Shown piece after piece: positions 9,451 through 28,434 of a stretch of DNA of 32,000 bases (the first letter of the stretch is position 1; the number at the start of each line of letters is the position of its first letter). The DNA is from Candidatus Nanoarchaeia archaeon. Its GTDB lineage: Archaea; Nanobdellota; Nanobdellia; Woesearchaeales; JANQNC01. The position numbers and the translations under genes were made by a program. The notes below the pieces were generated by a model, which worked only from the letters and a program-made list of their open reading frames with translations, was not told the DNA's origin and did no database searches. Location of the stretch: the NCBI GenBank assembly GCA_028279745.1, contig JANQNC010000001.1, forward strand, positions 720,001 to 752,000, read 5' to 3'.

Positions 9451-9452
9451 AA

Positions 9453-10247: not shown

Positions 10248-10292
10248 TAAGCAGTAAAACGTTCTTATTATCATTATAAACTGTGGGAAACC

Positions 10293-10302: not shown

Positions 10303-10322
10303 CCCTCAGATTTCCTCGATGT

Positions 10323-10586
10323 ATGGTAGAAGGAAAACGAAAATCAGGATCAAAAAGGAAAATCAAAGTAAGAGTGCCTAGCTCAAAGTCAGTCACTCAA
10401 TACAAGAAAAGAAAGCCAGCAAAGGCAAAATGTGCAGAATGCAGCGCAGATTTGAAAGGAGTTGCACGAGTAAGAGCAACAAAACTCAAAAAAATGCCAA
10501 AATCAGCAAAACGACCATCAAGACCATTTGGTGGACAGTTATGCAGTAAATGCACAAGAAAAGAAATAGTCAGAAGATCTAAATAG
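10323..10586 (+). CDS. rpl34e: 50S ribosomal protein eL34
   Basis: Motifs VRVPSSKSVTQYKKRKPAKAKCAECSADLKG and RPFGGQLCSKCTRKEI, giving a CxxC...CxxC zinc ribbon as in eL34. Confidence 0.85.
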   Translation: MVEGKRKSGSKRKIKVRVPSSKSVTQYKKRKPAKAKCAECSADLKGVARVRATKLKKMPKSAKRPSRPFGGQLCSKCTRKEIVRRSK

Positions 10587-10620
10587 ATCTTCTGGATTTC
10601 GTAAAGCATAAATGCTTTAC
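10571..10620 (+). other. Two consecutive perfect inverted repeats (stem-loops) at the 3' end of rpl34e
   Basis: CAGAAGATCT (10571-10580) and AGATCTTCTG (10585-10594) flank the loop AAAT and span the TAG stop. GTAAAGCAT (10601-10609) and ATGCTTTAC (10612-10620) form the second repeat. Confidence 0.6.
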
Positions 10621-10703
10621 AAAATAGTCAAACGAGCAAAAGAAGGATCTCTTAAGGGAAAAAGGCGACTATCCCAACAAAACAAGAGATTGGAGGAAAC
10701 AAA

Positions 10704-11189
10704 ATGAATGTAGGAAGACTATGTGTTAAGATAGCAGGAAGAGACGCAGGGAAAAAATGCGTAATCGTTGAAGTTCTAGAAGGAAGCTTTGTAACAATAG
10801 ACGGCGAAACAAGAAGAAGAAAGTGCAATATAAGACACTTAGAACCACTAAAAGAAGAGATAAAAGTGGGAAAAGGAAGCCATGAAGAAGTTGTAAAAGC
10901 GTTCAAAGATTTGGGTATTGAGATAAAAGAAAAGAAATCAAAACCTAAAACTGAAAAACCCAAAAAACAAAGAAAAATTAAAGTAAAAGCTGCAGCAGAA
11001 CCTAAAGCTGTTAAGAAAACAGAGAAAAAGGACACAGCAAAAGCAGCTGAAAAGAAATCAGAGGCTAAAAAAGAAACTCCCAAAGCAGCAGAGAAAAAAG
11101 AAGAAAAACCTGCAGCTGAAAAAAATGAAGTGAAAGCTGAGAAAAAGGCTGAAGCTAAAAAGCCAGCAGCAAAAGCTGCTAAGAAATAA
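10704..11189 (+). CDS. rpl14e: 50S ribosomal protein eL14 (KOW domain) with a ~85 aa Lys/Ala/Glu-rich C-terminal tail
   Basis: The N-terminus VGRLCVKIAGRDAGKKCVIVEVLEGSFVTIDGETRRRKCNIRHLEP is the eL14 KOW core. GGAGG at 10693-10697 precedes the ATG. The tail contains repeated AAEKK/KAAAK units. Confidence 0.8.
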   Translation: MNVGRLCVKIAGRDAGKKCVIVEVLEGSFVTIDGETRRRKCNIRHLEPLKEEIKVGKGSHEEVVKAFKDLGIEIKEKKSKPKTEKPKKQRKIKVKAAAEPKAVKKTEKKDTAKAAEKKSEAKKETPKAAEKKEEKPAAEKNEVKAEKKAEAKKPAAKAAKK

Positions 11190-13708: not shown

Positions 13709-15247
13709 TTATTTCAACCAACATTTTATATTTCTTAATACTTCAAGATCGTTCTTGTAAAGATCTCTTAAGTCTGATAAATTATAATAAGGTAATAGTA
13801 TTCTCCCGAGACCGAAACCCCACGCCAAGACAGGAACTTCTTTACCAATGAGTGTTTTAGTTACCTCCGGTCTAAATATGCCGCAACCACCAAGCTCAAC
13901 CCACTCATTCTTAACAGGATTTAAAACTTCGATTTCTGCACTTGGTTCTGTGTAAGGGAAATGTGCGGGTCTAATCCTAACATCAGCATACCCCATCTTA
14001 CCGAAAAATTCTTTTAGGAAACCCAGAAGATGGGAGAACGTAGCTTCTTCACCAACAACAATACCATCTACTTGATTAAACTCAAATAAATGTTTCCAAT
14101 CAAGAGCTTCATTTCTATAAACTCTGCCGACCTTGAAATATTTCTTAGGAAGATCTGACTCTTTTAATTTTGAGATTGTGTGTGCTGAGAGAACTGTGGT
14201 GTGAGTTCTAAGTAAGATTTCTTTTGCAACATCTTCACTCCACTTATACTGCCAACCTTTACTTCCAGTATCAGAACCATCTTCATGAACTTCTTTAACT
14301 TTTTTTGCAATGTCTTCTGGAAGTTTAGCTTGTGCAATATTTTTACCGTCCGCTAAATAGAAGGTGTCCTGCATCTCTCTAGCAGGATGATCTTGAGGGA
14401 CAAACAATGAATCTAAATCCCAGAAAGCGCTTTGGACAATATTTCCTTCCATCTCTTCAAATCCCATCTCTAACCAGATCTGTTTAACATACTTTATTGC
14501 CTCTCTGATAAAGTGTCTTCTTCCTGCTGCAATCTTAGGAACATTAATCTTAATATCATAAGATCTGAACTCTTTACCTTTCCAGCTATTGTTTTTTAAC
14601 ATTTCAGGAGTTAGTTGCTCAAGAAGTTCTACATCGAGATCTTTTTCTTTGACTAATTTTTTCCCCAACTCTGTAAGTTCGTAAGATTTAGTTTTTATCG
14701 TGTCTACTTTTACAATCTTTTTTCTCTTCTGTAAATTTTCCAATGAAAACTGTTCTTCCGGTGCAAGTTCGTCAAAAGGTTTAGGTGTTTTTAGAGATAT
14801 GATAAATTTTTGTTCTAATGACTCCGACTCAACCATCTTTTCTCCTGCAGGGAGAACTTTTACCTTCAAAGGTTTGCCTTCAGCTTGGATAGCTGCTTTA
14901 CTTTTTAATGTGCCAATGCATATACCAATCTCTTCTTTCTCTATCTTGGCTTTCTTAGCAACATCGTTAACATCCATCTCTTCTTTGATGGCTTTAAGGA
15001 ATCTAATTTCCGGCAATCCTTCATCTGCGTATTTTTCCCCATTCTCATCTAAAGAAACCATCTGGGTTGAGGATTCTGACAGTTTTAGGACTTCTTTGTT
15101 TTCAAGCCACTGCAAAGCTCTCATAACTTCAACGTCTTTCATCATACTCTTTTCCACAAGGTCATAAAAAGTCTTACAAAAAGTAAGAAAAGGAATGATT
15201 TTCCTCTCAAGAGGATGCAAAGTTTTCACTAATGACTTAATGTCCAT
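13709..15247 (-). CDS. pheS: Phenylalanine--tRNA ligase alpha subunit (archaeal type)
   Basis: Class II motifs are present: HPAREMQDTFYL, LRTHTT, VGRVYRNEALDWKHLFEFNQVDG, FPYTEPSAEIEV and GCGIFRPEV. Confidence 0.9.
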   Translation of the reverse strand: MDIKSLVKTLHPLERKIIPFLTFCKTFYDLVEKSMMKDVEVMRALQWLENKEVLKLSESSTQMVSLDENGEKYADEGLPEIRFLKAIKEEMDVNDVAKKAKIEKEEIGICIGTLKSKAAIQAEGKPLKVKVLPAGEKMVESESLEQKFIISLKTPKPFDELAPEEQFSLENLQKRKKIVKVDTIKTKSYELTELGKKLVKEKDLDVELLEQLTPEMLKNNSWKGKEFRSYDIKINVPKIAAGRRHFIREAIKYVKQIWLEMGFEEMEGNIVQSAFWDLDSLFVPQDHPAREMQDTFYLADGKNIAQAKLPEDIAKKVKEVHEDGSDTGSKGWQYKWSEDVAKEILLRTHTTVLSAHTISKLKESDLPKKYFKVGRVYRNEALDWKHLFEFNQVDGIVVGEEATFSHLLGFLKEFFGKMGYADVRIRPAHFPYTEPSAEIEVLNPVKNEWVELGGCGIFRPEVTKTLIGKEVPVLAWGFGLGRILLPYYNLSDLRDLYKNDLEVLRNIKCWLK

Positions 15248-15265
15248 ACTGTTCAGAGTTAGAGC

Positions 15266-15280
15266 CTTTATTTATAAAAT
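15266..15280 (-). promoter_or_regulatory. TATA box for pheS-pheT (leaderless)
   Basis: The minus strand reads TTTTATAAATAAAGG, centred ~26 nt upstream of the pheS ATG at 15247. Confidence 0.5.
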
Positions 15281-15291
15281 TATAGGAGAAA

Positions 15292-16143
15292 TTATTTCTT
15301 TTTAACTGTAAATATAGCAACTAAAGCGACAACAACCGCTAACAAAATAACCAAAGCAGAAGAACTAACTTCAGGTATGGTTTCACCCCCTTGGTTATCT
15401 GGATTATTGTATAAATCTAAAACTTCAGTCTCGGTTAAAGCTCTATCCCAAACTGCAACTTCATCTAGTAATCCATTATAATAATGCTGAGGAACGGGGC
15501 TGGCACCATCATATCTCGCACGACCCATCTCAAACACACCATAATTGGTATTGAAAGTATTTCCGCTAACAACCGTATATTTAGCACCATTAATGTAAAA
15601 ATCAATAGTCTGACCATCTGAATTAAGAACAACAGCAACATGATTCCATTCGTTGAAGTTTCCAACATAAGCAGAGCCTCCACCTGCGTCAAATCCATCA
15701 ACAACAATTCTAAAATCACCACTATCTGGATCGTTATGATCAATCAGAATGTCAAAAAGCTGATGAGTTGAAGCAGAACCCATACCTAGAATGCCGCCCC
15801 TATAGCTGTATATCCCTTTAAACTGCTCAAGCTGGTAATCAGGGTTAATCCAAAATGATATTGTTCTTTCAGCACTACCTGAAGGAAGATCTGTTGTAGT
15901 CATGGAAACGTAACCCGCATCAGTGCCGTCAAAACTAAATGCATTATCTACTTTTCCAGATACACCTCTTCCTACAACACCATTAACAGTTCCGTCATTA
16001 ACACCTTTTTGATCAATAACATCTCCTGATAACTGATCAAGCTGATAGTAGGATATTAACCCAGTGTCATGATCAAGAACGCCTGCGCTAACAAAAGCAG
16101 AACACAGAAAAATCATAAATGTAAACAAAGTTAGTCTCTTCAT
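15292..16143 (-). CDS. Secreted LamG/concanavalin-A-like lectin domain protein with a C-terminal TM anchor
   Basis: The signal peptide is MKRLTLFTFMIFLCSAFVSAG. The Laminin_G_3-type pattern is YYQLDQLSGDVIDQKGVNDGTVNG...GKVDNAFSFDG...TISFWI...WNHVAVVL...FYINGAKY...GLLDEVAVWDRALTETEVLDLYN. The C-terminus is ALVILLAVVVALVAIFTVKKK. I set the start to the ATG at 16143 because the longer ORF would overlap trmB. Confidence 0.75.
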   Translation of the reverse strand: MKRLTLFTFMIFLCSAFVSAGVLDHDTGLISYYQLDQLSGDVIDQKGVNDGTVNGVVGRGVSGKVDNAFSFDGTDAGYVSMTTTDLPSGSAERTISFWINPDYQLEQFKGIYSYRGGILGMGSASTHQLFDILIDHNDPDSGDFRIVVDGFDAGGGSAYVGNFNEWNHVAVVLNSDGQTIDFYINGAKYTVVSGNTFNTNYGVFEMGRARYDGASPVPQHYYNGLLDEVAVWDRALTETEVLDLYNNPDNQGGETIPEVSSSALVILLAVVVALVAIFTVKKK

Positions 16144-16230
16144 AAAACAGTTAATAGAGTTCCAGTTTAAAAAAGTTTCTAAAAACGCTAGAAAAACGAA
16201 GTTTTTTGTGGAAAAAATGTAAAAATTAAG

Positions 16231-16239
16231 AAAAAAAAA
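16231..16239 (-). terminator. Oligo-T tract downstream of trmB
   Basis: The plus strand has A9, which is T9 on the minus strand. It begins 9 nt past the trmB stop (16248-16250). Archaeal termination typically occurs at oligo-T runs. Confidence 0.4.
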
Positions 16240-16247
16240 GAAGAAAT

Positions 16248-17069
16248 CTATTTCTTCAATGCTGAACCAGCTGCTTTCATGTCTTTCCAAGCAAGGTCAA
16301 ACATGTCATTCATTGCAGATGCAAAGAATGGTGTGTTAACCCAGATTCCCACATCGTAGGTAGGGTGAACATCAGCGTCGTTCATAACCATAAAAGTTAG
16401 TTCTTTGCCGTCAACTAATGCAAATCTTGCATTCACGTTGTGAGCGTTTCTAACTTCCGCAAGTCCTGATAAAGACTTAACTGCACTGCCGCACTCTTTT
16501 GTTATAGGTGCAGCAATCCTAACCTTAACACCTTTTTTCTTAAGCTTTTCAAATACTGGCTTAAGTTGATCAGCTTTTCTGATGAAACCTTGTGTTGTGG
16601 TCATTATAGCAACTGCTTTTTGTGCGTTCTTAACTGTAAGCTCTAAGTGGTCGTATAGGTTTCTTCTTCCTCGGACACTTCCAGATAAATCTGAAGGATC
16701 AACTAACTCGATACCTTGTGTGTGCAGTAAGTTTAGCTCGTTAAGAACATCTGTCTTCTTTAGGTTATCAAGTCTTGATGTTTTCTCTTTTGCATCCTCA
16801 GCAACATTTTTCTTAACTCTCTCAACAACTTCTGTCGGAGGAACTGCAACATACTTGATAGGCTTCCCTAACTTCATCACAACAAAGCCTTTCTTTTCAA
16901 GACTTTCAAGAACGTCATAACTTCTACTTCTTGGAACTGTAGCAATATCTGACAATTCACCCGCAGTAGAAACTCCTCTGCTCAAAAGAGCAGCCCATAT
17001 TTTTACTTCGTATAGATTCAATCCAAAGGATTTCCTCAACTTACTCAAAAATTCATCTTTAACAATCAT
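16248..17069 (-). CDS. TrmB-family transcriptional regulator
   Basis: The N-terminal winged HTH is LYEVKIWAALLSRGVSTAGELSDIATVPRSRSYDVLESLEKKGFVV, followed by a TrmB-like C-terminal domain. The ATG at 17069 is preceded by GGTGA. A TTG at 17108 is an alternative start. Confidence 0.8.
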   Translation of the reverse strand: MIVKDEFLSKLRKSFGLNLYEVKIWAALLSRGVSTAGELSDIATVPRSRSYDVLESLEKKGFVVMKLGKPIKYVAVPPTEVVERVKKNVAEDAKEKTSRLDNLKKTDVLNELNLLHTQGIELVDPSDLSGSVRGRRNLYDHLELTVKNAQKAVAIMTTTQGFIRKADQLKPVFEKLKKKGVKVRIAAPITKECGSAVKSLSGLAEVRNAHNVNARFALVDGKELTFMVMNDADVHPTYDVGIWVNTPFFASAMNDMFDLAWKDMKAAGSALKK

Positions 17070-17305: not shown

Positions 17306-17340
17306 AGAAAAAAATGAAATGGGGGAAAGAGGTAATCATA

Positions 17341-18309
17341 ATGATAAAAGACAAACTAAAAGAAAAAGCAAAACTAAACCCAAAAACAATCGTTTATCCA
17401 GAAGCAACAGAAGAAAGGATACTGCAAGCAGTCTCAAAAATATTAGAAGAAAAAATAGCAAACGTAATCCTGTTAGGAAATGAAGAAGATATAAGAAACA
17501 AAGCAAACGAGATGGGGATTAATGTAGAGGAAGCAAAAATAGTCAATCCAGAAACAGACGAAAGAAAAGAACACTACATAGATTCATTGTATGAATTAAG
17601 AAAAGATAAACTAGTCAATAGAGATGAAGCAAAAGCAATACTAGAAAATTATAATTATTATGGAACTATGATGGTGAAAGAGGGTGATGCGGACGGCATG
17701 ATATCTGGAAGCACACACTCAACAGCAGACACGATAAGGCCTGCACTACAAATAATAAAAACAAAAGAAGGAACAAAAACAGCAAGCGGTGCAATGATAA
17801 TGGAGATAGAAGGAAAAGAGATGTTGTTTGCAGATGTAGCAGTAATACCTTCACCAACTTCTGAGCAACTAGCAGACATAGCTGCAGCAGCGGCAAAGAC
17901 AGCACAGATAATGGAGATGAAACCAAAGATTGCAATGCTAAGCTTCTCAACAAAAGGAAGCTCACAACACGAATCAGTAGAAAAAGTAAGAAAAGCAACA
18001 ATACTTGCAAAAGAAAAAGGACTTAGTGTGGATGGAGAGTTACAAGCGGATGCAGCAATAGTAAAAGAAGTTGCAGAGATGAAATGTTCAGGAGGAGATG
18101 TGTGTGGAGATGCAAACATACTAATATTCCCAGACCTAAACTCAGGCAACATAGGATACAAACTAGTTGAAAGACTTGCAAACTGTGAAGCAATAGGACC
18201 AATAATACAAGGGTTAGACAAACCAGTAAACGACTTATCAAGAGGTTGCAAAGTAGAAGACATAATAGACTTAACAGCATACACAGTTGTTGAGGCACAA
18301 GAAAGATGA
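17341..18309 (+). CDS. pta: Phosphate acetyltransferase (short-form Pta)
   Basis: The protein contains IVYPEATEERILQA..., GDADGMISGSTHSTADTIRPALQII, FADVAVIPSPTSEQLADIA, NILIFPDLNSGNIGYKLVERL and GPIIQGLDKPVNDLSRGC, which are PTA_PTB family signatures. GAGGT lies 7 nt upstream of the ATG at 17341. There is an ATGA overlap with ackA. Confidence 0.85.
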   Translation: MIKDKLKEKAKLNPKTIVYPEATEERILQAVSKILEEKIANVILLGNEEDIRNKANEMGINVEEAKIVNPETDERKEHYIDSLYELRKDKLVNRDEAKAILENYNYYGTMMVKEGDADGMISGSTHSTADTIRPALQIIKTKEGTKTASGAMIMEIEGKEMLFADVAVIPSPTSEQLADIAAAAAKTAQIMEMKPKIAMLSFSTKGSSQHESVEKVRKATILAKEKGLSVDGELQADAAIVKEVAEMKCSGGDVCGDANILIFPDLNSGNIGYKLVERLANCEAIGPIIQGLDKPVNDLSRGCKVEDIIDLTAYTVVEAQER

Positions 18310-19382
18310 ACATATTAGTCTTAAACGTAGGAAGTTCTTCAGTAAAGTACTCAGTCTTCAAAGATGAAAAAGAAATCTTAGAAGGGCTTGTAGATAAGAT
18401 AGGTGAAAAAACCGGAGAATTCAAAGATCATGAAAGCGTTATTGAACATATCGAGAAGGAGTTAGTTAGCAAAAATATTTCTATTGATGTTATAGGACAT
18501 AGAGTAGTACACGGGGGAAAAGAGAAGGAAAGCAAAGTAGTAGATAACGAATTCCTAAAAGAAATAGAAAAATATTCAGACTTGGCACCATTACACAACC
18601 CTCACGAAATAAACGGAATAAAAATATCAAAAAAATTAGGAGCGTTACAAGTTGCAGTATTTGATACCGCATTCCATTCAACCATTCCTTCAAAAGCATC
18701 GACTTACGCTTTACCAAACTCATTATGTAAAAAATATGGAATCAAAAGATATGGGTTTCATGGAATAAGTCATAGTTATATTGCATCAGTTACAGAAGGT
18801 AAAGTAATCTCATGTCATTTAGGGAGCGGATCAAGTGTTTGTGCGATCATCAACGGAAAAAGTGTAGATACCTCAATGGGATTCACACCCGCAGAAGGAT
18901 TAGTCATGGGAACCAGAGCTGGAAGCATAGACCCAGGAATAATACCTTTCTTAATCGAGAAAGAGGAGTACAGTTGGCAACAGATAGAACATGTGTTGAA
19001 TGAGGAATCAGGTTTGAAGGGATTAAGTGGAAAGAATGATTTAAGAGAGTTGTTAACAGATGACTCAAAAGAAGGGAAACTGGCAGTTGACATATTTGTT
19101 TATTCGATTGTGAAACACATCGGAAGTTACGCAGCTGCAATGAATGGCGTAGATGAAATAGTTTTTACTGCAGGCATTGGAGAAAACAGTTCTGAAATTA
19201 GAAAAAGAGTGTGTAATAGTTTAAGTTATCTGGGAGTTATTGTCGATGATGAAAGAAATACTGAGGGTGATATGCTAATAAGTTCTGACAATTCTAAAGT
19301 TAAAGTCAAAGTGATAAAAACAAACGAAGAACTGATGATAGCAAAAGAGGTAAAAAAAGCAGTGACTAAATCTCATATCTAA
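18306..19382 (+). CDS. ackA: Acetate kinase (compact, 358 aa)
   Basis: The protein contains ILVLNVGSSSVKYSVF, GHRVVHGG, LAPLHNP, VFDTAFH, YGFHGISH, CHLGSGSSVCAI, SMGFTPAEGLVMGTRAGSIDPG, FTAGIGENS and KTNEELMIA. Every canonical acetate/propionate kinase motif I can recall is present. Confidence 0.9.
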   Translation: MNILVLNVGSSSVKYSVFKDEKEILEGLVDKIGEKTGEFKDHESVIEHIEKELVSKNISIDVIGHRVVHGGKEKESKVVDNEFLKEIEKYSDLAPLHNPHEINGIKISKKLGALQVAVFDTAFHSTIPSKASTYALPNSLCKKYGIKRYGFHGISHSYIASVTEGKVISCHLGSGSSVCAIINGKSVDTSMGFTPAEGLVMGTRAGSIDPGIIPFLIEKEEYSWQQIEHVLNEESGLKGLSGKNDLRELLTDDSKEGKLAVDIFVYSIVKHIGSYAAAMNGVDEIVFTAGIGENSSEIRKRVCNSLSYLGVIVDDERNTEGDMLISSDNSKVKVKVIKTNEELMIAKEVKKAVTKSHI

Positions 19383-20406
19383 GTATGGAAGCAATACCTC
19401 CCAAACCATCTAACTTCTTACCTGCATCATGATCAGAACTAATAACGTGAACTTCTGCTTTAAGAGAATCTGCCAGCTTCATCAAGTTGTCTGTTTCTTC
19501 ATAGTTATGATCTTCAGATCGTATATAGTTATCAGTGACTAACAAAGTTTTGACAGCACCTGCCTCTATTGACTTCTTTACTTCATCTAAACCATAAGCT
19601 GCAAGCTTGCCTTTAGAAATTTCTGTTAATAATTGCTCAACAACAATAGTCTCTTTGGCAATCCGATCTTCCTTCAGGAGAGTTTTAACTTCATCTCTTT
19701 TTAAGACTTCATCCACACCTTTTCTTCCGGAATCATTACAGGTAGCATAAAATATTTTTTTAGGAAAATCGTCAGGAACTTTTTTCTTAAATTCTTCCTT
19801 CCAAAAACCAGGACTTGCAACAAGAACGCTGTTAACTTCGTACCTATTTAGGTAATCTTGTAGAAGTTTAACAGTTTCAGCAAAAAAATCACCTTTGATT
19901 ACAGAATCATCACCTTTTTTCTGAACATCGCCCCTAGTTTCAAGCAAGATATCATAACCTGAACTTTTTAGAAGTGCGAAAGTTGCAACGTCACGATCCA
20001 GTATGAGAATTAATGTGTTAGATTTTTGTTTACAAGCTTCATCAAGTTTGTCTAACTGGTACTTAAGCCACTTTTCCTTCGTTATTTTTATTTGTGTGTT
20101 TTCTTCAACATTGAATGAATGGTGTGAGCCAGAAGGAACATCTTCAGGACCTTCTCTAACAACACCCAGAATTTTTAGAACATTTGAAGATTTAGTAAAA
20201 TCAACCTTTTCAACCTCAATTGTGATAAAAACGGGTTTACGAACAACCTTTGCATTTTCAGAATCACCAATCTTTACCTTCCTCATAGTCTTACCACTAA
20301 CTAAATCTTTAGGTTCGACAATGTGAGAAAGGTACCACAAGTCATCTAAGCTTTCAGTAGTAAGCTTAACTTCGCCTTTCTTCAAATCTTTATGAGTTAC
20401 TTTCAT
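19366..20406 (-). CDS. pelA: Pelota / aDom34 mRNA surveillance factor
   Basis: The protein starts MKVTHKDLKKGEVKLTTESLDDLWYLSHIVEPKDLVSG (Pelota N-domain). Its eRF1-like central and C domains follow (ATFALL..., VASPGFWKEEF, AVKTLLVTD). At 346 aa it has the expected size. The ORF-track extension to 20865 is antisense to the PIN gene and was rejected. Confidence 0.85.
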   Translation of the reverse strand: MKVTHKDLKKGEVKLTTESLDDLWYLSHIVEPKDLVSGKTMRKVKIGDSENAKVVRKPVFITIEVEKVDFTKSSNVLKILGVVREGPEDVPSGSHHSFNVEENTQIKITKEKWLKYQLDKLDEACKQKSNTLILILDRDVATFALLKSSGYDILLETRGDVQKKGDDSVIKGDFFAETVKLLQDYLNRYEVNSVLVASPGFWKEEFKKKVPDDFPKKIFYATCNDSGRKGVDEVLKRDEVKTLLKEDRIAKETIVVEQLLTEISKGKLAAYGLDEVKKSIEAGAVKTLLVTDNYIRSEDHNYEETDNLMKLADSLKAEVHVISSDHDAGKKLDGLGGIASILRYEI

Positions 20407-20428
20407 GATAGTTAGTTTAGGGTTGAGG

Positions 20429-20436
20429 TATAAAAA
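20429..20436. promoter_or_regulatory. Candidate shared or bidirectional TATA element between pelota (minus) and the PIN gene (plus)
   Basis: The plus strand reads TATAAAAA and the minus strand TTTTTATA. The centre is ~26 nt upstream of the pelota ATG at 20406 (leaderless) and ~57 nt upstream of the PIN ATG at 20489. Confidence 0.4.
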
Positions 20437-20488
20437 GGTAGTGGAAAATGGGGAAACAAATAAAAAGGACAGAAAGAATTCACATAAT

Positions 20489-20938
20489 ATGAAAGAGTTA
20501 TTAGATTCTTTAGAGAGAGTTAACAGTGTTGACAAATTATTTGACACCTGCTTTATCCTATATGAAATAGAACACAACAAAGGAAACAAGCTGGAAGGGG
20601 GCATGACAAGCTTTACAGCACAAGAACTGATACATGTAATGCACAAAGTAAAACCAGAACTAAAGCTAAAAGCAAGACACTTCTTAAAAAAATGCAACCT
20701 CAAAATTATTGAGATAAATGTTAATCCTGGAAATGCTGAACAAGAAAGAAACTTCACAGAAACAGTAGACAATGAGCTATTAAAAGAGGTTAGAGATCCT
20801 TCAGATGCAGTGTTAATAGCAACAGCAATACAAAAAAAGATAGATAAAATATATACAAGGGACAAACACCACTTATATACAACAGAGCTAGAAAATTATC
20901 TTCAAAAATATGGGATTACAGTATATAATACAATATAA
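20489..20938 (+). CDS. PIN-domain protein (putative ribonuclease), solitary
   Basis: The acidic residues have PIN-like spacing: LFDTCFILYEIE ... DPSDAVLIATAIQKKIDKIYTRDKH. I placed the start at the first ATG downstream of the predicted TATA box, but it is uncertain. Confidence 0.6.
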   Translation: MKELLDSLERVNSVDKLFDTCFILYEIEHNKGNKLEGGMTSFTAQELIHVMHKVKPELKLKARHFLKKCNLKIIEINVNPGNAEQERNFTETVDNELLKEVRDPSDAVLIATAIQKKIDKIYTRDKHHLYTTELENYLQKYGITVYNTI

Positions 20939-20955: not shown

Positions 20956-20963
20956 TTTATAAA
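20956..20963 (+). promoter_or_regulatory. TATA box for the surface-protein cluster
   Basis: TTTATAAA lies ~39 nt upstream of the ATG at 20999. AGGTGA at 20989-20994 sits 4 nt before the ATG. Confidence 0.45.
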
Positions 20964-20998
20964 GAGAAAACTCAATAAAAGTACTCAAAGGTGACAAT

Positions 20999-22198
20999 AT
21001 GAGAAGAAAAGGACAATCTGGGACAGGCACTGCAACATTAATCACAATAATAGCTGCATTAATCATATTATATATATTATTCATACCGCCAGCAGAACGA
21101 GCAAAACTTCTGGGAGATGACAACGAAACAGTAACCGAAAAAGACAAAGACACAGCAAAAAAAACAGAAGAGCTTGAAAACGAAACCTTGTTGCTTGAAT
21201 ATCCTGGAAGCATAACCTATCAACAATCATCAAGAAAAGAGTATGCTGATTTTCCAACAGTCTACCTGTCTAGCCAGACAACATCTGGAGTTATAGGAGA
21301 AGCAAATGCAATATTCGTAGAAAGAAACATATTCAAAGAAAAAACAGAAAGTGTTAGGTTTGACATAGAAAACACAGAAGAAGTAGACAGCATATTTGTA
21401 AGCTTCAAAGCAAAAGAAAGAGATGGGATACTAGTTCTGAAAGTGAATGGACAGACATTCTACGAAAACAGACTAAGAACAACCGCAGTTAACCCGATCA
21501 ACATACCAAAAACTGAACTAGTCAATGGAGAAAATGTATTGGAGATAACAACAAACCACCCAGGATTACTGTTTTGGGATTCTAACAGATACATACTAGA
21601 AAACGTACAAGTAATCACAGACGTGAAACAACTGGGAAATCTAGAAGCAGAAGTAAGCTTCTATGTTGGTGAGGAGAACAGCAACGTAAAAGATGCAAGA
21701 GTAAGCTTCTTCCCAGACTGTCAAACAGGAACAATAGGCAAACTAAACATCGAGATAAACAACAAATTGCTGTACTCAGCACTACCTGATTGCGGAATGG
21801 CAAAACCGATAAGTTTTGATCCAACATACATAAGACAAGGACAAAACAACATAAAATTCACAACAAGCAAAGGACTGTATGTTTTGGATAGCATGAGAGT
21901 AGAAACAACATTAAAAGAACAACTAAACCCAACATACTACTTCAAAATAAGCTCTGACTTAGCTGAAGACATAGAAGGAAACTATTATGATGCAATATTA
22001 ACACTTAACTTCGCAGATGACGATGAACTAAAAGTGGCAGACATAGTAGTTAATGGTGACTATTTCCCAATAAGCCAAAGAGACTCAAAATACGAGGAAG
22101 ACATCTCTAACTATCTACAACAAGGCAATAACGCAATAAAGATAATCCCTGAAAGCAACATGGACATTATCGACATAAGAGTAGAACTAGAGGAATAA
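20999..22198 (+). CDS. Surface protein with an archaeal class III (type IV pilin-like) signal peptide and three tandem ~90 aa beta-rich repeats
   Basis: The N-terminus MRRKGQSGTGTATLITIIAALIILYILFIPP has basic residues, KG|Q and a hydrophobic helix, matching the archaeal prepilin peptidase motif. Three internal repeats share the pattern xVNGxxF...(Q/N)GxNxIxI...IxxIxVE (aa ~116-207, 216-303, 311-398). A TATA box and AGGTGA lie upstream. Confidence 0.7.
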   Translation: MRRKGQSGTGTATLITIIAALIILYILFIPPAERAKLLGDDNETVTEKDKDTAKKTEELENETLLLEYPGSITYQQSSRKEYADFPTVYLSSQTTSGVIGEANAIFVERNIFKEKTESVRFDIENTEEVDSIFVSFKAKERDGILVLKVNGQTFYENRLRTTAVNPINIPKTELVNGENVLEITTNHPGLLFWDSNRYILENVQVITDVKQLGNLEAEVSFYVGEENSNVKDARVSFFPDCQTGTIGKLNIEINNKLLYSALPDCGMAKPISFDPTYIRQGQNNIKFTTSKGLYVLDSMRVETTLKEQLNPTYYFKISSDLAEDIEGNYYDAILTLNFADDDELKVADIVVNGDYFPISQRDSKYEEDISNYLQQGNNAIKIIPESNMDIIDIRVELEE

Positions 22199-22319
22199 GT
22201 TGCTGACACACTACTTAAAAAAAGAGAGGTAGACGAAAAATGAAGTTTTTCGAACCTCTAAGAATAGAGGTGTTCTGAAAATAGCAGTAGATCAAGACGT
22301 CTTAGAAAAAGAGAACAAA

Positions 22320-24251
22320 GTGCTCAGGGAAGCAATAAGAAATAACAGAAATAATTCTTTCGGAAACTTAAACAGAGAAGAACAGATAAGACAAAAAGAG
22401 CTAAGACTAGAAGAAGAAAAACAAAGGCTGGCTGAAAAACAGTTTCAAGAATCAAAACTAGACAAAGCAAAAGCTTACGGAAGTGCTGCCGCAGGAAAAG
22501 CTGCATTTGCAGGTAAGAAAACAATAGGCGCATTAGACAAATTAACGAACGCAAAATACATGGGAAAAACAATCGTGCAAGCACCCATAAAAGTAATAGG
22601 TGGAATAGCAAACAGAGGTGGAGGAATAATATTTCTTGTAATAATCATCATGCTTGTATACGGAGCATTTTCTTTAACGTGGGCAGGACAAGAACCACTA
22701 CAACAACAAGCAGGACTACTGTGGGAAGGAATAAAGAACATAGGGTCAAAACCATTCGAAATCTACAACAACTATCTAACACAACTAGAACTTCAACTAA
22801 ATGGAAGTTTCTATAGAGGTGTCCAAGAAACCAAAGGAAAAGATTTTGGGATAAAGATAGTCAACTTACAGACACCTGTGCTAAAAGACACATTTGAAGA
22901 CCAACCAATAGAGATATGGGGCGACATAGATGGAGAATTTAATGAAGATTTAGTAGAAAAACTAAGCAGTGCAGGAGATATAATGCTAACATGCAGGACA
23001 AATGACGATGAAAACGGAACAGTAAGCCCAGAAACAATATCAATGTGGGATCTATATGCAGGAAGGCAAGGATTTACATGCGAGATACCTGAAGCAGAAG
23101 AAGGAGTCAAAACAGTATTCATAGAAGCAACATATCCTTTCAGAACAACAGCATACAAAGAGGTGCCATTACTGGAGAAAACACAAAGAGACATACTACT
23201 AAAAGAAGCACCATCAGAACTAGACAGGTTTAAGCAAGATCTGGCAGTGTCAAGCGGAGGACCTGCAACAATAGGACTCCACATAGACTCACCTTTCCCC
23301 GTTGTTGTTGATAGCACAGTATGTCCAGGAGAACCCTATGAACTAACAAGTGGATGTTTTGCATTCGCAACATTCTCGATATACCGAGAGACAACATCAA
23401 CAAGTGAACTCTTTAAAGAGATACAGGACATAACAATCTCACCAGAAAACGAAGGGATGATACTGCAGGAATGCAGCCCAATAAGGTTCAACAAAGTAGG
23501 AACTGAATGGAAAGCAGTTAGTGAAGATCTAGAAAAATATAAAGACTACACAGGAACAATAAGTTCAAAATGTGACGTAATATTCCAAGATCCAGATTTA
23601 TTACTTGGGGAAAACAGAGCAAATGCAAACTCAGTTCCGATAAAAATATCAGCAGATTACTTATTCACGAAAAAAATACCAAAATCGATCATAGTAAAAG
23701 AATCAACATACAACCTAATAACTGCAGAAGCATCACAAGTAAAAAAATACTTTGAAAGCAAAAACTCAGAGTTAACAGATTCGGTCGGGTGGATGGAACG
23801 AGAATCCCAAAGAACAAACATACCGCTAACTGTAATAGCAGGAGTTGCGTCACTAGAAAGCAACAATGGAAAAAGCGGATTATCAACACAAAGCAAAAAT
23901 CTTTACGGGATTAAATGTACATCTTCATGGGAAAGTCAAGGAAAGCCTTGCAAAGACTACCCAAAAAGCGACTTAGATAAAACTTACGAACCAGACGCGC
24001 CAAACAAATATAGAGAATATGGAAATTGGGAAGAATCCATAACTGACTTTGTAAACTTAATAAGCACAAGCAGCATATACTCTGAAGCAATGCAACACAC
24101 AGACAATGCAGCAGAAATGCTAAAATACATACACGGATACGAATGCAGAACAGACAGCACAAAATGCGTATACTCCACATACCCCCTATGGGCAAGCGCG
24201 ATAACAACCAGAATCAAAGACATGAGTGAAGAAGAGGTAACAGTAGCATGA
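22320..24251 (+). CDS. Membrane-anchored multidomain protein with a C-terminal GH73-like N-acetylglucosaminidase (peptidoglycan hydrolase) domain
   Basis: The N-terminal segment is charged and helical. One TM helix (GGGIIFLVIIIMLVYGAFSLTW) is followed by a ~370 aa extracytoplasmic region. The C-terminal ~145 aa carries GH73/FlgJ-type motifs: VIAGVASLESNNGKS (compare AALESGWG, putative catalytic Glu513 at nt 23856-23858), KNLYGIK (compare NLFGIK), YREYGNWEESITDFVNLI and YSTYPLWASAI (compare YATDPxYAxKL). The GTG start at 22320 is uncertain, and an in-frame ATG at 22560 is the alternative. Confidence 0.75.
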   Translation: MLREAIRNNRNNSFGNLNREEQIRQKELRLEEEKQRLAEKQFQESKLDKAKAYGSAAAGKAAFAGKKTIGALDKLTNAKYMGKTIVQAPIKVIGGIANRGGGIIFLVIIIMLVYGAFSLTWAGQEPLQQQAGLLWEGIKNIGSKPFEIYNNYLTQLELQLNGSFYRGVQETKGKDFGIKIVNLQTPVLKDTFEDQPIEIWGDIDGEFNEDLVEKLSSAGDIMLTCRTNDDENGTVSPETISMWDLYAGRQGFTCEIPEAEEGVKTVFIEATYPFRTTAYKEVPLLEKTQRDILLKEAPSELDRFKQDLAVSSGGPATIGLHIDSPFPVVVDSTVCPGEPYELTSGCFAFATFSIYRETTSTSELFKEIQDITISPENEGMILQECSPIRFNKVGTEWKAVSEDLEKYKDYTGTISSKCDVIFQDPDLLLGENRANANSVPIKISADYLFTKKIPKSIIVKESTYNLITAEASQVKKYFESKNSELTDSVGWMERESQRTNIPLTVIAGVASLESNNGKSGLSTQSKNLYGIKCTSSWESQGKPCKDYPKSDLDKTYEPDAPNKYREYGNWEESITDFVNLISTSSIYSEAMQHTDNAAEMLKYIHGYECRTDSTKCVYSTYPLWASAITTRIKDMSEEEVTVA

Positions 24252-25171
24252 AAAAAATATTATTTGTTTTGACACTGCTATCAGTACTTATTCTAGCAGG
24301 ATGTGGACAAAGTAGTGAGGGTGATGTAGCAGTAGACGAAAGAGTAAAAACAGGAACAAGAGGAATGCAAATGGAATTCATAAGAGACATCCCTTATAAT
24401 AACGAAGCATACGAACAAGAACAATTTCCACTGGCACTAACAATACGAAATGAAGGGGGATACGACATAACACAAGGATGGTTGGCAATGACAACAGAAG
24501 GACCTGTAGACGTCCTTTCAGTAGAAAGAAGTGGAACTGTCTACCAATTTGCAACACCAAACGACCCCTTGGGCGGAAAAGGGTTTGGAGAGACAGGGCA
24601 GAGTAGAAGGATAGAAGCAAACTTAAGAGCAAATGAAATAGCATTAACAAAAGAACAACAAGCAACAATAACAACAAAAGCATGCTATCAATATCAAACA
24701 ACACTAGTACAAAAAATATGCATCGACCCAGACATAAACCAAGAATTCCTAAGAATCAAACCCTGTAAGTACAAAAAAGACACAGGTATAAGCGGAGGAC
24801 AAGGTGCACCGGTAAGCGTAACAAATGTAGAATTCAAAAGAATACCTTATGGAAATAACATACAACCAGTATTTAAGTTAACAGTAACAAATAATGAAGG
24901 TGGAAAAATAATAGAAGAAGGAAACACTGGGGGAGCGTGCAGTACAGGAATAATTGCAGGAGCTTTCAACAAAATAAAAGCAGAAGCAAAAATAGGAGAT
25001 GAAAGACTAAGCTGTATACAAAAAGATGAAGACAGCCAAATATACATAGAATGTACAGGATCACAAATATCACAAAGCAAAACATCAGGCTACAAAGACA
25101 TAGTTGTTGATTTATACTACGGTTATATAATAGAAGACGAGAAAAATATAAGACTGCTAAAAAAAGAGTAA
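24248..25171 (+). CDS. Putative lipoprotein, paralog A (two CARDB-like beta-sandwich halves)
   Basis: The signal peptide and lipobox are MKKILFVLTLLSVLILAGC. Shared family motifs are LALTIRNEGGYD, ACYQYQTTLVQKICIDP, GGQGAPVSVTNV, FKLTVTNNEGG and VVDLYYGYI. There is an ATGA overlap with the upstream hydrolase gene. Confidence 0.75.
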   Translation: MKKILFVLTLLSVLILAGCGQSSEGDVAVDERVKTGTRGMQMEFIRDIPYNNEAYEQEQFPLALTIRNEGGYDITQGWLAMTTEGPVDVLSVERSGTVYQFATPNDPLGGKGFGETGQSRRIEANLRANEIALTKEQQATITTKACYQYQTTLVQKICIDPDINQEFLRIKPCKYKKDTGISGGQGAPVSVTNVEFKRIPYGNNIQPVFKLTVTNNEGGKIIEEGNTGGACSTGIIAGAFNKIKAEAKIGDERLSCIQKDEDSQIYIECTGSQISQSKTSGYKDIVVDLYYGYIIEDEKNIRLLKKE

Positions 25172-25231
25172 AAACAACAACATTATATAGAAAAGTTTAA
25201 ATAAGCAAATAGACGGATTTAATATACAAAA

Positions 25232-26116
25232 ATGAAAGGAAAAAACATACTACTAACACTAGCAATAATCGCAGTAATTCTAGCAGGATGTGAGCAAGGA
25301 GGACAAGGAACTGAAGGAGACACATCAACAGGAGTATACATAGGAACACAATCAATAGAAATACAATACAGAGAAGGACTACCCTATAGTCCAGTAACAA
25401 TAGATGATAAAGTAGATATAGGTGTTGAAGTAAAAAATTACGGCGCTGAAGATTTAACAGGTGGAAAAATAATGGTTGAAGGGATAACTTCAACAAACGT
25501 AGCAGTACAATCATTAACTGTTGAGGGAAAAGACACATCAGGAAGAAGTTATGGTGGGCCAGAGTACATAACATTCGAAAACATACCAATAGAAGGAGAC
25601 CAATCAATCATAGTAACCGCATGCTACCCATACAAAACAAAACTGGTAAAGAACTTCTGCTATGATCCAACCATAGGAACACAAACAAGAGAAGAAGTTT
25701 GCTCATTCCAAACACAAAATGCTATTAAAGACGGACAAGGAGCACCAATAGCAGTAACAAACGTACAGATAGACAGAAGAGAAAGAGGAGACAAAGCAAA
25801 ACTCATAATAACACTAGAAAACAAAGGAACTGGAAATATAAGAACACCATCAAAACCAACAATAGACTGTGACGGACAAGTACCAACACAAAACGACATA
25901 AACAGAATAAGGATAGATAAAGCAACATTCTCAGGAAAAACAGGAAATTGCAATCCAACAGTTGGTGGGTTGGTTGTAATGGAAAACGGAAAAGCAGTAG
26001 TAAGTTGTGAATATGCAGGAATGGGAACAACAACATCACAAAGACAGCTAGACCTAGAACTATCATATGGCTACGTAAGCCAATCAAAAATAAAAGAAAT
26101 CAAAGTTGAAACTTAA
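25232..26116 (+). CDS. Putative lipoprotein, paralog B
   Basis: The signal peptide and lipobox are MKGKNILLTLAIIAVILAGC. Family motifs are IGVEVKNYGAED, ACYPYKTKLVKNFCYDP, DGQGAPIAVTNV, LIITLENKGTG and LDLELSYGYV. Confidence 0.75.
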   Translation: MKGKNILLTLAIIAVILAGCEQGGQGTEGDTSTGVYIGTQSIEIQYREGLPYSPVTIDDKVDIGVEVKNYGAEDLTGGKIMVEGITSTNVAVQSLTVEGKDTSGRSYGGPEYITFENIPIEGDQSIIVTACYPYKTKLVKNFCYDPTIGTQTREEVCSFQTQNAIKDGQGAPIAVTNVQIDRRERGDKAKLIITLENKGTGNIRTPSKPTIDCDGQVPTQNDINRIRIDKATFSGKTGNCNPTVGGLVVMENGKAVVSCEYAGMGTTTSQRQLDLELSYGYVSQSKIKEIKVET

Positions 26117-26130
26117 AGGAGGACAACAAA

Positions 26131-27090
26131 ATGAAAAAAGCAATATCACTAACATTCTTGTTGGCATCGTTAATGCTACTAGCAGGGTGTGGAGAACAAG
26201 AAGTAACAACAGATGCAACAAAAACATTCATAGGTGGAACAACAGGCTTAGTAATGAGCTTTGAACCAGGCTTCCCACCAGAAGAAGTATTTGATGCAGG
26301 AAACTCACCATTCGACATAGATATCAAACTAAAGAATGAAGGAGAATACACAGTAGCTTCAGGCGACGTAGAAGCAAGAATAGTTGGGCCATATGCACCT
26401 GACTTCGGCGTAAGTGAAAATGACTTAGTAAAATCAAGTGCAGAAAGCATACTGGCAAAATCAACAAGCACAGAAGGACAGGTAATAGAGGGTGGAGAAA
26501 GCCACATAATCTTCACAAACCTAAATTATGGACAAGAGCTATCCGGAAATGAACTGAATAACTATAGAGCAGACATCTGCTACACATACGGAACAGAAGC
26601 AGTAACACAAATATGTGTGCTGAAAGATCTACTAAGAACAACATCAAGCAACATCTGTAACGTAAATGAAGAAAAGGAAGTGAGAAATTCAGGAGCACCA
26701 GTACAGATAACAAAGATAACAGAAAGCAGATACGGAACACAAGACATTGGGATAACCTTAGACATAGCAAACATAGGTGTTGGAGAAGTATACCAAAAAC
26801 AAATGAAATGTGATGCTACACAGCTAAAAGAAAAGAACAAAGTTTGGGTAGAAATAGACTCAGGATTAGAAACCCAACCAACATGTTCTGGATTAAAAGA
26901 TGAAGCAGGAAGCACAATAAGCGGTAATGCAGGATATGTAACATTAAGCCCAGACACAAAAACAACAAGATTAACATGTGTGCAGAAAGCAACAACACAA
27001 CAAGACTTCATAAAAACAGTCAACTTCAACTTAGAGTATGACTATTATGAAACAAAAGACTGGCAGTTGTTAATAAAACATCTAGGATAA
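26131..27090 (+). CDS. Putative lipoprotein, paralog C
   Basis: AAGGAGG at 26116-26122 precedes the ATG. The signal peptide and lipobox are MKKAISLTFLLASLMLLAGC. Family motifs are IDIKLKNEGEYT, ICYTYGTEAVTQICVLKD, NSGAPVQITKI, IGITLDIANIGVG and FNLEYDYY. Confidence 0.75.
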   Translation: MKKAISLTFLLASLMLLAGCGEQEVTTDATKTFIGGTTGLVMSFEPGFPPEEVFDAGNSPFDIDIKLKNEGEYTVASGDVEARIVGPYAPDFGVSENDLVKSSAESILAKSTSTEGQVIEGGESHIIFTNLNYGQELSGNELNNYRADICYTYGTEAVTQICVLKDLLRTTSSNICNVNEEKEVRNSGAPVQITKITESRYGTQDIGITLDIANIGVGEVYQKQMKCDATQLKEKNKVWVEIDSGLETQPTCSGLKDEAGSTISGNAGYVTLSPDTKTTRLTCVQKATTQQDFIKTVNFNLEYDYYETKDWQLLIKHLG

Positions 27091-27091
27091 A

Positions 27092-27110
27092 TTTTTATCC
27101 TTTCTTTTTT
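27092..27110 (+). terminator. Oligo-T tracts after the last gene of the surface cluster
   Basis: T5 (27092-27096) and T6 (27105-27110) lie directly after the stop at 27088-27090, in the 30-nt gap before the convergent gene. Confidence 0.45.
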
Positions 27111-27120: not shown

Positions 27121-28434
27121 TTATTTTCCTAAAGAAATATCTTCGTCTTCTAAATTAGAAAGTTCCGTGAAATCTGAGGCGAGACGCTTAATAATCTCCT
27201 GTTCTTTCCTTTCTTTAGCTTTAATTACACGATTAAGATGATCAACATGATCATTTAACTCAGAAATTCTAGACTTATAATCTATCTCTAGTTCCACATT
27301 GTCTTTGCTCATGCTGCTAATTTCTTGATTGAACTTTTTCTTAGCAGACTCAAGACTGTTTTCAAAAAATAGCTGTTTGTCTAAAAGTTCCTTATTTTTC
27401 TTCTTCAAAAGCTCTTTAAGCTCAGAAACAGTCAAATTGAGATTGTCAACCTCTTCGATAAGGTGCTTATTTTCTTTGTCAAAAACAGATAATCTTGCCT
27501 TAGAAGCGTCAAGCTCATCCTCAAAGTTCTTGTTCTTTCTTTCATCAACATTAAGCCTTTCCCGATAAGAGATCATATCATTATTAAGATGGATTATCTG
27601 CTGTTCTTTCTCGATTATATTTCTTTTAAGCGAGTCTATATTTACATTAAGTTTTTCAACCAACTGATCTCTCTTTTTTAATTCAGTATGAAGACTTTGA
27701 AGCTGCAAAAGCTTTTCCTTAACATTACCCTTCAAAGAATCAACATCAGTATTAAGATGCTTAAGCTGCATATTCTTTTCAGTGTTGAATCCAGATAACT
27801 CTTGGTTGAGCTTGTCAAATTTAAGGAGTTCATTTTCTAAAACTCTTATTTGCTTCTTTAAACCATCTGAAGCAGAAATCTCATAGTCAAGTCTATCGGT
27901 AATTCTTCCTTTCTTAGCAGATAAAAAAGTAAGTTGTCTCCCTTTAACTTCCAAATCTTTAGAAAGCATGTTGTTAATCTTATTCATCTTAACAACTTCA
28001 GAACTCAACAGGGCAATCTCTTTCTTAGCTTGTTCAGCAACACTTGCAAAAGTATCCTTATCTTGAGAACACATCTTCAGCTTTTTTTCAAGGAAGTCAC
28101 ATCTTTTAGACAAGTCTTTGATTGTTGAGTTAAGTTGTTTAGTATCTTTAGATAATAAAGTGTTTTCTTCAAGAATATTAAGATGTTTGTCTTCTTTCTT
28201 TCTTTGTGTGGATAACTCTTTAGTTAATCTGTCATTTAATGAGTTTAATTTGATTAAATCTTGTTTGAAAAGACTAACTTGACTTCTAAGCTCTTTATTT
28301 TCAGCCAGTAAGTCATTAATTTCAGAATCAAACTCTTGTTTTCTTCCAAGTTTTGATCTAAGTTCTTCCAATTCGGAATTCAACTTATTAAAAGACTCAG
28401 AAATAGGATCCAAAACCTCTTTTTTTCTTTTCAT
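27121..28434 (-). CDS. Hypothetical all-coiled-coil protein (437 aa)
   Basis: The sequence is heptad-like and rich in Leu/Lys/Glu/Asn/Ser along its whole length. It has no TM segment, no Walker motif and almost no Pro/Gly. It starts 6 nt after the rfcS stop, so it is probably co-transcribed. Confidence 0.7.
   Translation of the reverse strand: MKRKKEVLDPISESFNKLNSELEELRSKLGRKQEFDSEINDLLAENKELRSQVSLFKQDLIKLNSLNDRLTKELSTQRKKEDKHLNILEENTLLSKDTKQLNSTIKDLSKRCDFLEKKLKMCSQDKDTFASVAEQAKKEIALLSSEVVKMNKINNMLSKDLEVKGRQLTFLSAKKGRITDRLDYEISASDGLKKQIRVLENELLKFDKLNQELSGFNTEKNMQLKHLNTDVDSLKGNVKEKLLQLQSLHTELKKRDQLVEKLNVNIDSLKRNIIEKEQQIIHLNNDMISYRERLNVDERKNKNFEDELDASKARLSVFDKENKHLIEEVDNLNLTVSELKELLKKKNKELLDKQLFFENSLESAKKKFNQEISSMSKDNVELEIDYKSRISELNDHVDHLNRVIKAKERKEQEIIKRLASDFTELSNLEDEDISLGK

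Follow-up and report, generated by a model that had tools for sequence, protein, structure and literature searches.

A conserved five-gene cell-surface operon of Woesearchaeota with exchangeable hydrolase domains on its membrane subunit

What would an archaeon do with a membrane-tethered protein that ends in a murein-cleaving domain? To our knowledge archaea make no murein, and the linkages of pseudomurein are different. The question is raised by five genes, here called G1 to G5, which lie on the + strand at positions 20999-27090 of a 32,000-nucleotide stretch of contig JANQNC010000001.1 from Candidatus Nanoarchaeia archaeon (assembly GCA_028279745.1; the whole stretch is referred to as the window). 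An earlier note on this DNA had described the five same-strand genes as a self-contained unit with solely exported or membrane-bound products, and had proposed an attachment and wall-breaching apparatus directed at bacteria. A check of the open reading frames (ORFs) has confirmed all five where that note had placed them; the unit is indeed self-contained, and every product is predicted to be exported or anchored, G1 by an N-terminal helix, G2 by a single transmembrane helix and G3 to G5 by signal peptides that end in L-A-G-C. G1-G5 is a real cell-surface operon that is conserved across Woesearchaeota, which are tiny archaea and among the most widespread DPANN groups, and its predicted wall-cutting G2 subunit suggests that these archaea physically engage bacteria.

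Conservation and inheritance of the cluster

Relatives of the cluster have been collected in a scan of one genome per species, which returned 127 species with a G1 relative, and the 80 best loci have served for comparison (loci are given L numbers). By title, these 80 loci belong to Woesearchaeota, Nanoarchaeia or Nanobdellati, except for third party annotation (TPA) bins that are labelled 'Methanosarcinales' and hold the same cluster. The bins in question, titled 'uncultured Methanosarcinales archaeon' (L009, L014, L017-L019, L021, L022 and many more), contain the Woesearchaeota-type cluster together with its flanks, and their titles are probably placeholders or wrong.

In every locus that is long enough the same order has been observed, namely G1, one large protein (517-1,253 amino acids) and three lipoproteins, which makes about 60 Woesearchaeota/Nanoarchaeia loci in which the homologs co-occur, a point that the earlier note had left to be checked. 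Pelota stands divergently upstream of G1 in all 68 loci with enough upstream sequence, and the gene for the small subunit of RFC (RFC-small) follows the cluster in 42. The window fits the order seen in L002-L084 and L086 and departs from it solely at the two borders, where a gene for a PIN protein and one for a coiled coil have been inserted. The junction of G2 and G3 is conserved as well: in the window an ATGA overlap (24248-24251) joins the G2 stop to the G3 start, and across the loci the gap between stop and start has a median of -4 nucleotides and stays within 20 nucleotides in 41 of 51 cases, which suggests that both proteins are produced in a coupled manner. G1 itself is only 28-37% identical in the dozens of genomes that share the cluster order and the pelota/RFC-small flanks.

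Because it sits between pelota and RFC-small, the five-gene cluster is a vertically inherited core module of Woesearchaeota and not a mobile element or island. One might object that the five genes encode unrelated secreted proteins and lie together by accident, or that they form a mobile or viral cassette with an endolysin-like gene, given that all five products are annotated just as 'hypothetical' and that the hydrolase domain of G2 weakly matches phage endolysins. We regard this explanation as very improbable in view of the same order and flanks in dozens of genomes, the conserved translational coupling of G2 and G3, the absence of integrase, capsid or repeat boundaries, and a GC content of the cluster that equals its surroundings in the archaeal, 35% GC window. 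A mobile element and a prophage have been discarded in view of the constant neighbours (pelota and RFC) and the even GC content, and the synteny excludes an incidental cluster as well.

In the protein index 59 relatives of G1 have been found, of about 390-405 amino acids and all 'hypothetical', the named ones coming from metagenome-assembled genomes of Woesearchaeota/Nanoarchaeota. Searches of the 5.8-billion-protein index with full-length G2, and then with an alignment of its core, returned only G2 itself and one further protein, P0002, and the wider G2 family has been reached only via synteny around G1. An exact search for G2 and G3 among contigs gave no match, and look-ups of cluster members yielded neither names nor taxonomy. 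The five-gene cluster is unnamed in every source checked, and the lipoprotein family, G1 and the G2 base are flagged here as protein families without a Pfam or NCBIfam name.

The G2 subunit and its exchangeable heads

G2 (22320-24251) is a protein of 643 amino acids if GTG at 22320 is its start, as we have assumed. The frame holds no ATG before codon 81, and since the charged tail is shared by the homologs, the true start is placed 5' of the ATG at 22560. This Lys/Glu-rich, coiled-coil-like tail (residues 1-100) is predicted to be cytoplasmic and is followed by one transmembrane helix (around residues 101-121; nucleotides 22620-22682) and by an ectodomain of about 340 residues (approximately 125-465), which is tandem beta-sandwich-like and contains conserved cysteines. 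The C-terminus (residues 493-635; 23796-24224) matches the Pfam family PF01832 Glucosaminidase/GH73 of endo-beta-N-acetylglucosaminidases at E 5.3e-15, with a score of 56.6 bits where the cutoff is 30.2, and the NCBIfam matches of the domain are GsmA/FlgJ, so that the GH73 assignment made in the earlier note holds. The same note had named a loss of catalytic residues as a possible flaw; the general-acid Glu is present as E513 (23856-23858) within the motif SLESNNGKS and aligns with the Glu of Sphingomonas FlgJ. The site is marked further by PDB 3k3t, in which the catalytic Glu has been mutated and Ala occupies the E513 column, and LES is invariant in the three archaeal G2 GH73 domains. Judged by these residues, G2 is a putative murein-cleaving hydrolase of the beta-1,4 bond between N-acetylglucosamine and N-acetylmuramic acid.

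The GH73 domain is only one of several domains that are found at this place. In a Pfam census of 57 G2 proteins, ten matched SLT, three GH73, one M23 and one VanY/M15, and a family-specific SLT profile has raised the SLT carriers to 13 of the 56 genome-derived G2 proteins. About 29% of the G2 homologs end in a peptidoglycan hydrolase of the SLT, GH73, M23 or VanY class, and per-protein scans together with the SLT-profile matches have placed it always C-terminal to the ectodomain and on G2 alone. A location of hydrolases on the lipoproteins has been considered and rejected, the extended lipoprotein copies carrying fn3 or NPCBM_assoc domains only. The exchange is also seen in the subclade of the window (the window, L001/P0002, L085, L086 and L087), where a long charged tail precedes the only helix of G2 and the three complete G2 proteins bear three different heads, GH73 in the window, VanY in L001/P0002 and M23 in L086; over the shared part, the G2 of P0002 is 46% identical to that of the window. 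In a tree of G1, carriers of SLT and of GH73 alternate within groups of close relatives, with the window in another clade. The GH73 domain is an exchangeable add-on and not a core part of the module. In L003, a Cys-rich extension takes the place of a hydrolase at the end of G2.

Outside the window subclade the majority of G2 proteins are predicted to be polytopic, crossing the membrane with 4-9 helices. The ectodomain of the window G2 shows weak but repeated similarity to other G2 ectodomains (1e-6 to 1e-13 in BLASTP and phmmer). A comparison of window-type G2 with that of L002-L004 by hhalign on small profiles gave no match, significance being reached only with the 57-sequence set and with BLAST or phmmer.

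SLT, GH73, M23 and VanY domains cut different bonds of bacterial murein. As four murein-cutting classes are found on G2 and archaea make no murein, the likeliest target is the wall of a bacterium in contact; bacterial murein as the substrate, and thus a bacterial target, is the simplest reading of the recurring heads. An opposite direction has also to be weighed, in which part of the Woesearchaeota would have gained a murein-like wall and G2 would be its membrane-bound autolysin or remodelling enzyme, joined to lipoproteins in the manner of the hydrolase complexes of the bacterial divisome or elongasome. Membrane-tethered hydrolases with lipoprotein activators are the norm in bacteria, and the genomic position of the cluster is that of a housekeeping module. 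Many bacterial genes have moreover been described in DPANN archaea (PMC8204110). We nevertheless consider such an own-wall function to be improbable: no mur, fts or pbp genes have been found in the window or the annotated flanks, an essential enzyme would not be missing from about 70% of the clusters, and close relatives would not differ in whether it is a glycosidase, a lytic transglycosylase, an endopeptidase or a carboxypeptidase.

A similar combination of parts is known from the trans-envelope machines of bacteria. VirB1 and the PrgK, TraG and TcpG proteins of Gram-positive conjugation resemble G2 in their N-terminal anchor, in their interchangeable hydrolase modules (SLT, M23, CHAP and others) and in an operon shared with surface proteins and lipoproteins. 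These proteins open the wall of their own producer and stand beside secretion ATPases and channel proteins, whereas the G1-G5 cluster has neither ATPases nor channels and shares no homologous component with them. The GH73 enzymes of bacteria, FlgJ among them (closest structures 3vwo, 2zyc and 5dn4), belong to the same catalytic family as the G2 head and have its general-acid Glu aligned, but the similarity is low (E ~1e-4), the rod-capping domain of the flagellar protein is missing from G2, and the host is an archaeon without murein.

Among archaea, reports of murein-cleaving proteins in Woesearchaeota and Pacearchaeota go back to 2013-2015, an SLT-domain family specific to the lineage (fam00969, Module 98) has been proposed to mediate attachment to bacterial walls (Castelle 2021, PMC8204110), and 'vampiristic' Woesearchaeota with GH23 genes have been described (Vigneron 2022, PMC9723730). 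A survey with experiments from 2025 has demonstrated bactericidal peptidoglycan hydrolases made by archaea, one of them a PF01832 protein, and has found them to be prominent in Nanoarchaeota (PMC12352652). The use of membrane-bound or extracellular murein hydrolases against bacteria by Woesearchaeota and Pacearchaeota is therefore already published (PMC8204110, PMC9723730, PMC12352652), and the ecological hypothesis of the earlier note is to that extent not new. The reported large SLT/GH23 proteins (AR20, Castelle 2015; fam00969; PMC9723730) come from the same lineage, are membrane-bound or extracellular, and share a murein-cleaving domain and the proposed role with G2; they may include members of the G2 family, as 13 of the 56 genome-derived G2 proteins carry SLT. 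The G2 of the window differs from them in having GH73 in place of SLT, and the respective papers treat single proteins or families without the operon, the lipoprotein paralogy, the G1 partner or the head swapping. Danwoldo of Halogranum salarium, like G2, is an archaeal protein with a PF01832 domain aimed at bacterial murein; Woldo and Danwoldo are, however, secreted via the twin-arginine (Tat) pathway, soluble and equipped with PG_binding_1, whereas G2 belongs to a conserved operon, is tethered to the membrane with its GH73 domain at the end of a beta-sandwich stalk, and lacks any recognised binding domain (PMC12352652). The five-gene operon, its placement between pelota and RFC, the paralogy of base and lipoproteins, the G1 partner and the head swapping have not been found in the open-access literature, and the operon and the swapping of heads appear to be undescribed.

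Lipoproteins, G1 and a possible complex

G3 (24248-25171, 307 amino acids), G4 (25232-26116, 294 amino acids) and G5 (26131-27090, 319 amino acids) each begin with a signal peptide that has an MKK/MKGK n-region and ends in the lipobox L-A-G-C, the cysteine being residue 19 in G3 and residue 20 in G4 and G5. The three are paralogs of each other (BLASTP E 4e-21, 4e-9 and 7e-9) and define a large family, as their profile has returned 2,530 cluster representatives at 50% identity (E <=1e-3), most of about 310 amino acids. Cysteines are invariant in this family; the lipobox Cys is at least 90% conserved in the alignment, and a lipobox of the form [LVI][ASTVI][GAS]C occurs in 89 of 111 family members and in 129 of 152 copies from the loci. 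The lipobox makes G3-G5 candidates for lipidation, and archaeal lipoproteins and the lipidation enzyme AliA have been described, including in DPANN (PMC12462473). Orthologs of G4 hold the same position in other loci, and G5 is the best conserved lipoprotein across genomes. Since the three lipoproteins form three ordered orthologous lines, the triplication is old.

Neither Pfam nor NCBIfam has given a significant match for G3, G4 or G5, nor for G1. The AlphaFold2 model of G3 (predicted local distance difference test, pLDDT, 92; predicted template-modelling score, pTM, 0.85) has two beta-sandwich domains, for which Foldseek against the PDB has returned generic Ig-like tandems, i.e., integrin thigh/calf domains, complement MG domains and RbmA. 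The earlier description of the lipoproteins as paired CARDB-like sandwiches has thus been borne out as regards paralogy and paired, generic Ig-like beta-sandwiches, but not as regards CARDB (PF07705), whose Pfam profile did not match G4 or G5 and gave noise alone for G3. The profile of 57 G2 ectodomains, in turn, aligns with the whole lipoprotein family over 244 columns (hhalign E 4.2e-5, probability 70%), and the alignment takes in the hallmark A-x-Y-x-Y-x-T and G-A-P motifs. By this comparison the G2 ectodomain is a remote paralog of G3-G5, so that a complex of these proteins would hold four paralogous stalk units. In L003 a 197-residue Gly/Tyr/Ser-rich protein with a signal peptide is encoded between the second and third lipoprotein genes (15185-15778).

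G1 (20999-22198, 399 amino acids) starts with MRRKGQ, followed by a hydrophobic helix (about residues 10-29), a FIPPxERxxLL motif, an acidic linker (residues 39-59) and three jelly-roll domains (approximately residues 62-200, 201-308 and 309-399). The domains repeat one another in hhalign (first and second E 6.7e-11, second and third E 7.7e-5, first and third E 1.3e-3), and the AlphaFold2 model (pLDDT 85) shows three beta-sandwich domains. Foldseek matches in the PDB comprise the jelly rolls of GH35/GH2 glycosidases, the carbohydrate-binding domains of BcsB, PNGase F, reelin and Cry toxins; the probability is 1.0 for GH35 beta-galactosidase, BcsB, PNGase F and GH2 domains, with template-modelling (TM) scores of about 0.2 at the level of domains. 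Sequence matches have stayed below threshold (PF14683 E 0.24; NF045579 E 0.078). The carbohydrate-binding-like repeats of the earlier note are therefore real as three repeated jelly rolls whose best Foldseek matches are of the galactose-binding-like type. Jelly rolls of this type usually bind glycans, and from its modelled fold G1 probably does so as well. BcsB, the periplasmic subunit of bacterial cellulose synthase, is a recurrent match from rank 6 and is likewise transmembrane-anchored with jelly-roll carbohydrate-binding domains, but the anchor of G1 is at the opposite end, a synthase partner is lacking, and the match is confined to the domain level (TM-score ~0.2). In L038 (9617-10561) and L043 (10430-11899) an extra ORF of 314 and 489 amino acids, respectively, without transmembrane helices lies between G1 and G2.

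The N-terminus of G1 had been taken for a class III/type IV pilin-like signal peptide. A [KR]-[GA] cleavage motif does precede the helix, and prepilin-type processing would cut between G and Q of MRRKGQ, yet 3-10 small residues stand between motif and helix. Among 40 aligned G1 homologs all have the pattern [KR].[GA][QNDT] within the first 25 residues (consensus K-[GA]-Q), and the helix and FIPPxERxxLL are likewise common to them. No pilin or class III signal profile of Pfam or NCBIfam has matched G1 at E values up to 1, and neither the window nor the annotated flanks of the loci L002-L004 and L086 have shown type IV filament machinery (ATPase, platform protein or prepilin peptidase). The signal may hence be called class III/pilin-like as a sequence pattern, and G1 may be simply signal-anchored. 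A type IV filament or secretion-system operon has been rejected for want of an ATPase or platform gene in the window and these flanks.

From these parts one may postulate the following arrangement. G2 would form the membrane base, with its charged tail in the cytoplasm, one or more transmembrane helices and a tandem beta-sandwich stalk that points outward; G3, G4 and G5 would be lipid-anchored paralogs of this stalk and probably assemble with it; and G1, held by its N-terminal helix, would display three galactose-binding-like jelly rolls that probably bind glycan. The distal end of G2 would serve as a slot for exchangeable domains, occupied here by a predicted GH73 N-acetylglucosaminidase with an intact Glu, in close relatives by VanY or M23, and in other lineages by SLT or GH73. 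The purpose may be attachment, local opening of the wall or scavenging of wall material. That such a complex presents a murein-cleaving head to bacterial walls touching the archaeal surface is the likeliest reading, to which we give about an even chance, and the apparatus of the earlier note survives in it insofar as four hydrolase classes recur at the C-terminus of G2.

Several observations weigh against this reading. The hydrolase is accessory, and about 70% of the G2 homologs have no recognisable one, so that the conserved core must do something else and its function is not wall breaching as such. The second catalytic motif of GH73, (G)YATD-like with a conserved Tyr and represented by AGYASD in L070 and AGYNPN in L055, is interrupted in the window G2 by a 10-residue insertion between HGY and VYSTYPLW, the structure alignments ending before this motif. 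No peptidoglycan-binding domain (LysM, PG_binding or SH3) has been found, and with a stalk of only about 350 residues the tethered enzyme would reach murein solely where cells lie very close together, an outer membrane being a barrier to it. The fold matches of G1 and G3 are generic, with TM-scores of at most 0.25, and the joining of the five proteins into one complex is something that we infer.

The frequency of headless G2 proteins leads to a further explanation, a general and structural envelope scaffold, for instance a lattice of Ig-like subunits that is S-layer-like or pseudo-periplasmic, to which the hydrolase would be added either for digesting wall debris to amino sugars and amino acids or as a contact-independent antibacterial, and not as a piece of machinery between cells. 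In archaea, S-layers are commonly made of Ig-like proteins with a lipid or transmembrane anchor, which fits the predicted products, as do the clade-wide occurrence of the module and its fixed place among informational genes. Peptidoglycan scavenging has also been proposed for Pacearchaeota (PMC11537232). Conversely, the hydrolase is tethered and not secreted, the swapping of four bond specificities between near relatives looks like adaptation to varying targets and not like bulk digestion, and four different subunits of about 300 residues on a polytopic base would make an unusual S-layer. As a full account we rate the lattice with its digestive or antibacterial add-on as unlikely, yet what the module does at its core may well be just such a scaffold role.

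Contact with a bacterial wall as the role of the heads can be extended to a bolder proposal, in which the module is an order-wide host-contact organelle of Woesearchaeota, with the G2 base and a lipoprotein stalk, with G1 recognising the envelope of the neighbour and with envelope-cutting heads that are matched to the partner. This extension is possible, though in our view doubtful. If it is true, murein-hydrolase heads as in this lineage would point to bacterial partners or prey, and the type of head would predict the type of host of uncultured DPANN archaea. The partners of Woesearchaeota, and how they touch them, become a testable question: the scattered observations of murein hydrolases are drawn together in one conserved, clade-wide operon with interchangeable wall-cutting domains on a membrane subunit, the operon provides specific protein targets, and head type is a genomic marker that could be correlated with co-occurring bacteria.

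Expression signals and neighbouring genes

The expression signals that the earlier note had listed have all been read at their positions on the + strand. A TATA-like box (TTTATAAA, 20956-20963) lies 35 nucleotides 5' of the G1 ATG, in the 60-nucleotide spacer after the PIN gene, and may act as promoter; a Shine-Dalgarno-like GGTGA (20990-20994) stands 4 nucleotides ahead of this ATG at 20999. AAGGAGG at 26116-26122 is the presumed ribosome-binding site of G5, whose ATG is at 26131, and the G5 stop is followed by oligo-T tracts (27092-27110) in the 30-nucleotide spacer before a convergent gene, which may work as an archaeal terminator. TATA, Shine-Dalgarno and T-tract motifs are plausible but by nature common in 35% GC DNA, and each is weak alone. 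The spacer between G1 and G2 (22199-22319, 121 nucleotides) includes a 12-codon ORF with its ATG at 22240.

At the borders of the cluster in the window, pelota and the PIN gene lie on one side and the coiled-coil gene and RFC on the other. The PIN-domain gene (20405-20938, + strand) stands between pelota and G1, which in most relatives are directly divergent, and L087 has a different ORF of 149 amino acids at its position. Between G5 and RFC-small, a gene on the - strand (27121-28434) encodes a Lys/Glu/Leu-rich, coiled-coil-like protein of 437 amino acids without a Pfam match, which has not been detected in any of the 80 comparison loci. In many of these loci RFC-small begins to appear no more than about 6 kb beyond the start of G1; in L002 (15022-17907) the RFC small subunit beside the cluster has 961 amino acids and contains an intein (Intein_splicing match).

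The remainder of the window holds a ribosomal-protein operon up to SecY and then an EMC3/TMCO1-like insertase, PheRS alpha and beta, a TrmB regulator, bacterial-type pta-ackA, pelota, the RFC small subunit, a NUDIX protein and a class I aminoacyl-tRNA synthetase of the Trp/Tyr family (PF00579). The earlier note had read the lack of adk and cmk as a sign of dependence on other cells, a claim that has been dropped, as absence from a window says nothing about the whole genome. SecY is followed at 8074-11189 by the EMC3/TMCO1-like membrane protein and an L14e-like KOW protein, with neither adk nor cmk, and L002 has the same arrangement after SecY (EMC3-like, L34e, KOW). Such a gene order seems to be characteristic of the lineage and does not prove that adk and cmk are missing from the genome. 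The bacterial-type pta-ackA pair (17314-19382) lies beside pelota and takes the same place in about ten related loci. Beside the TrmB regulator, a gene on the - strand (15295-16290) encodes a secreted Laminin_G_3/ConA-like lectin protein (Pfam E 2.6e-19). Its likely true start is an internal MKRLTLF... signal peptide, and its C-terminus, ...PEVSSSALVILLAVVVALVAIFTVKKK, is a predicted transmembrane anchor that resembles an archaeosortase-type sorting signal, which makes the protein another candidate for glycan binding at the surface.

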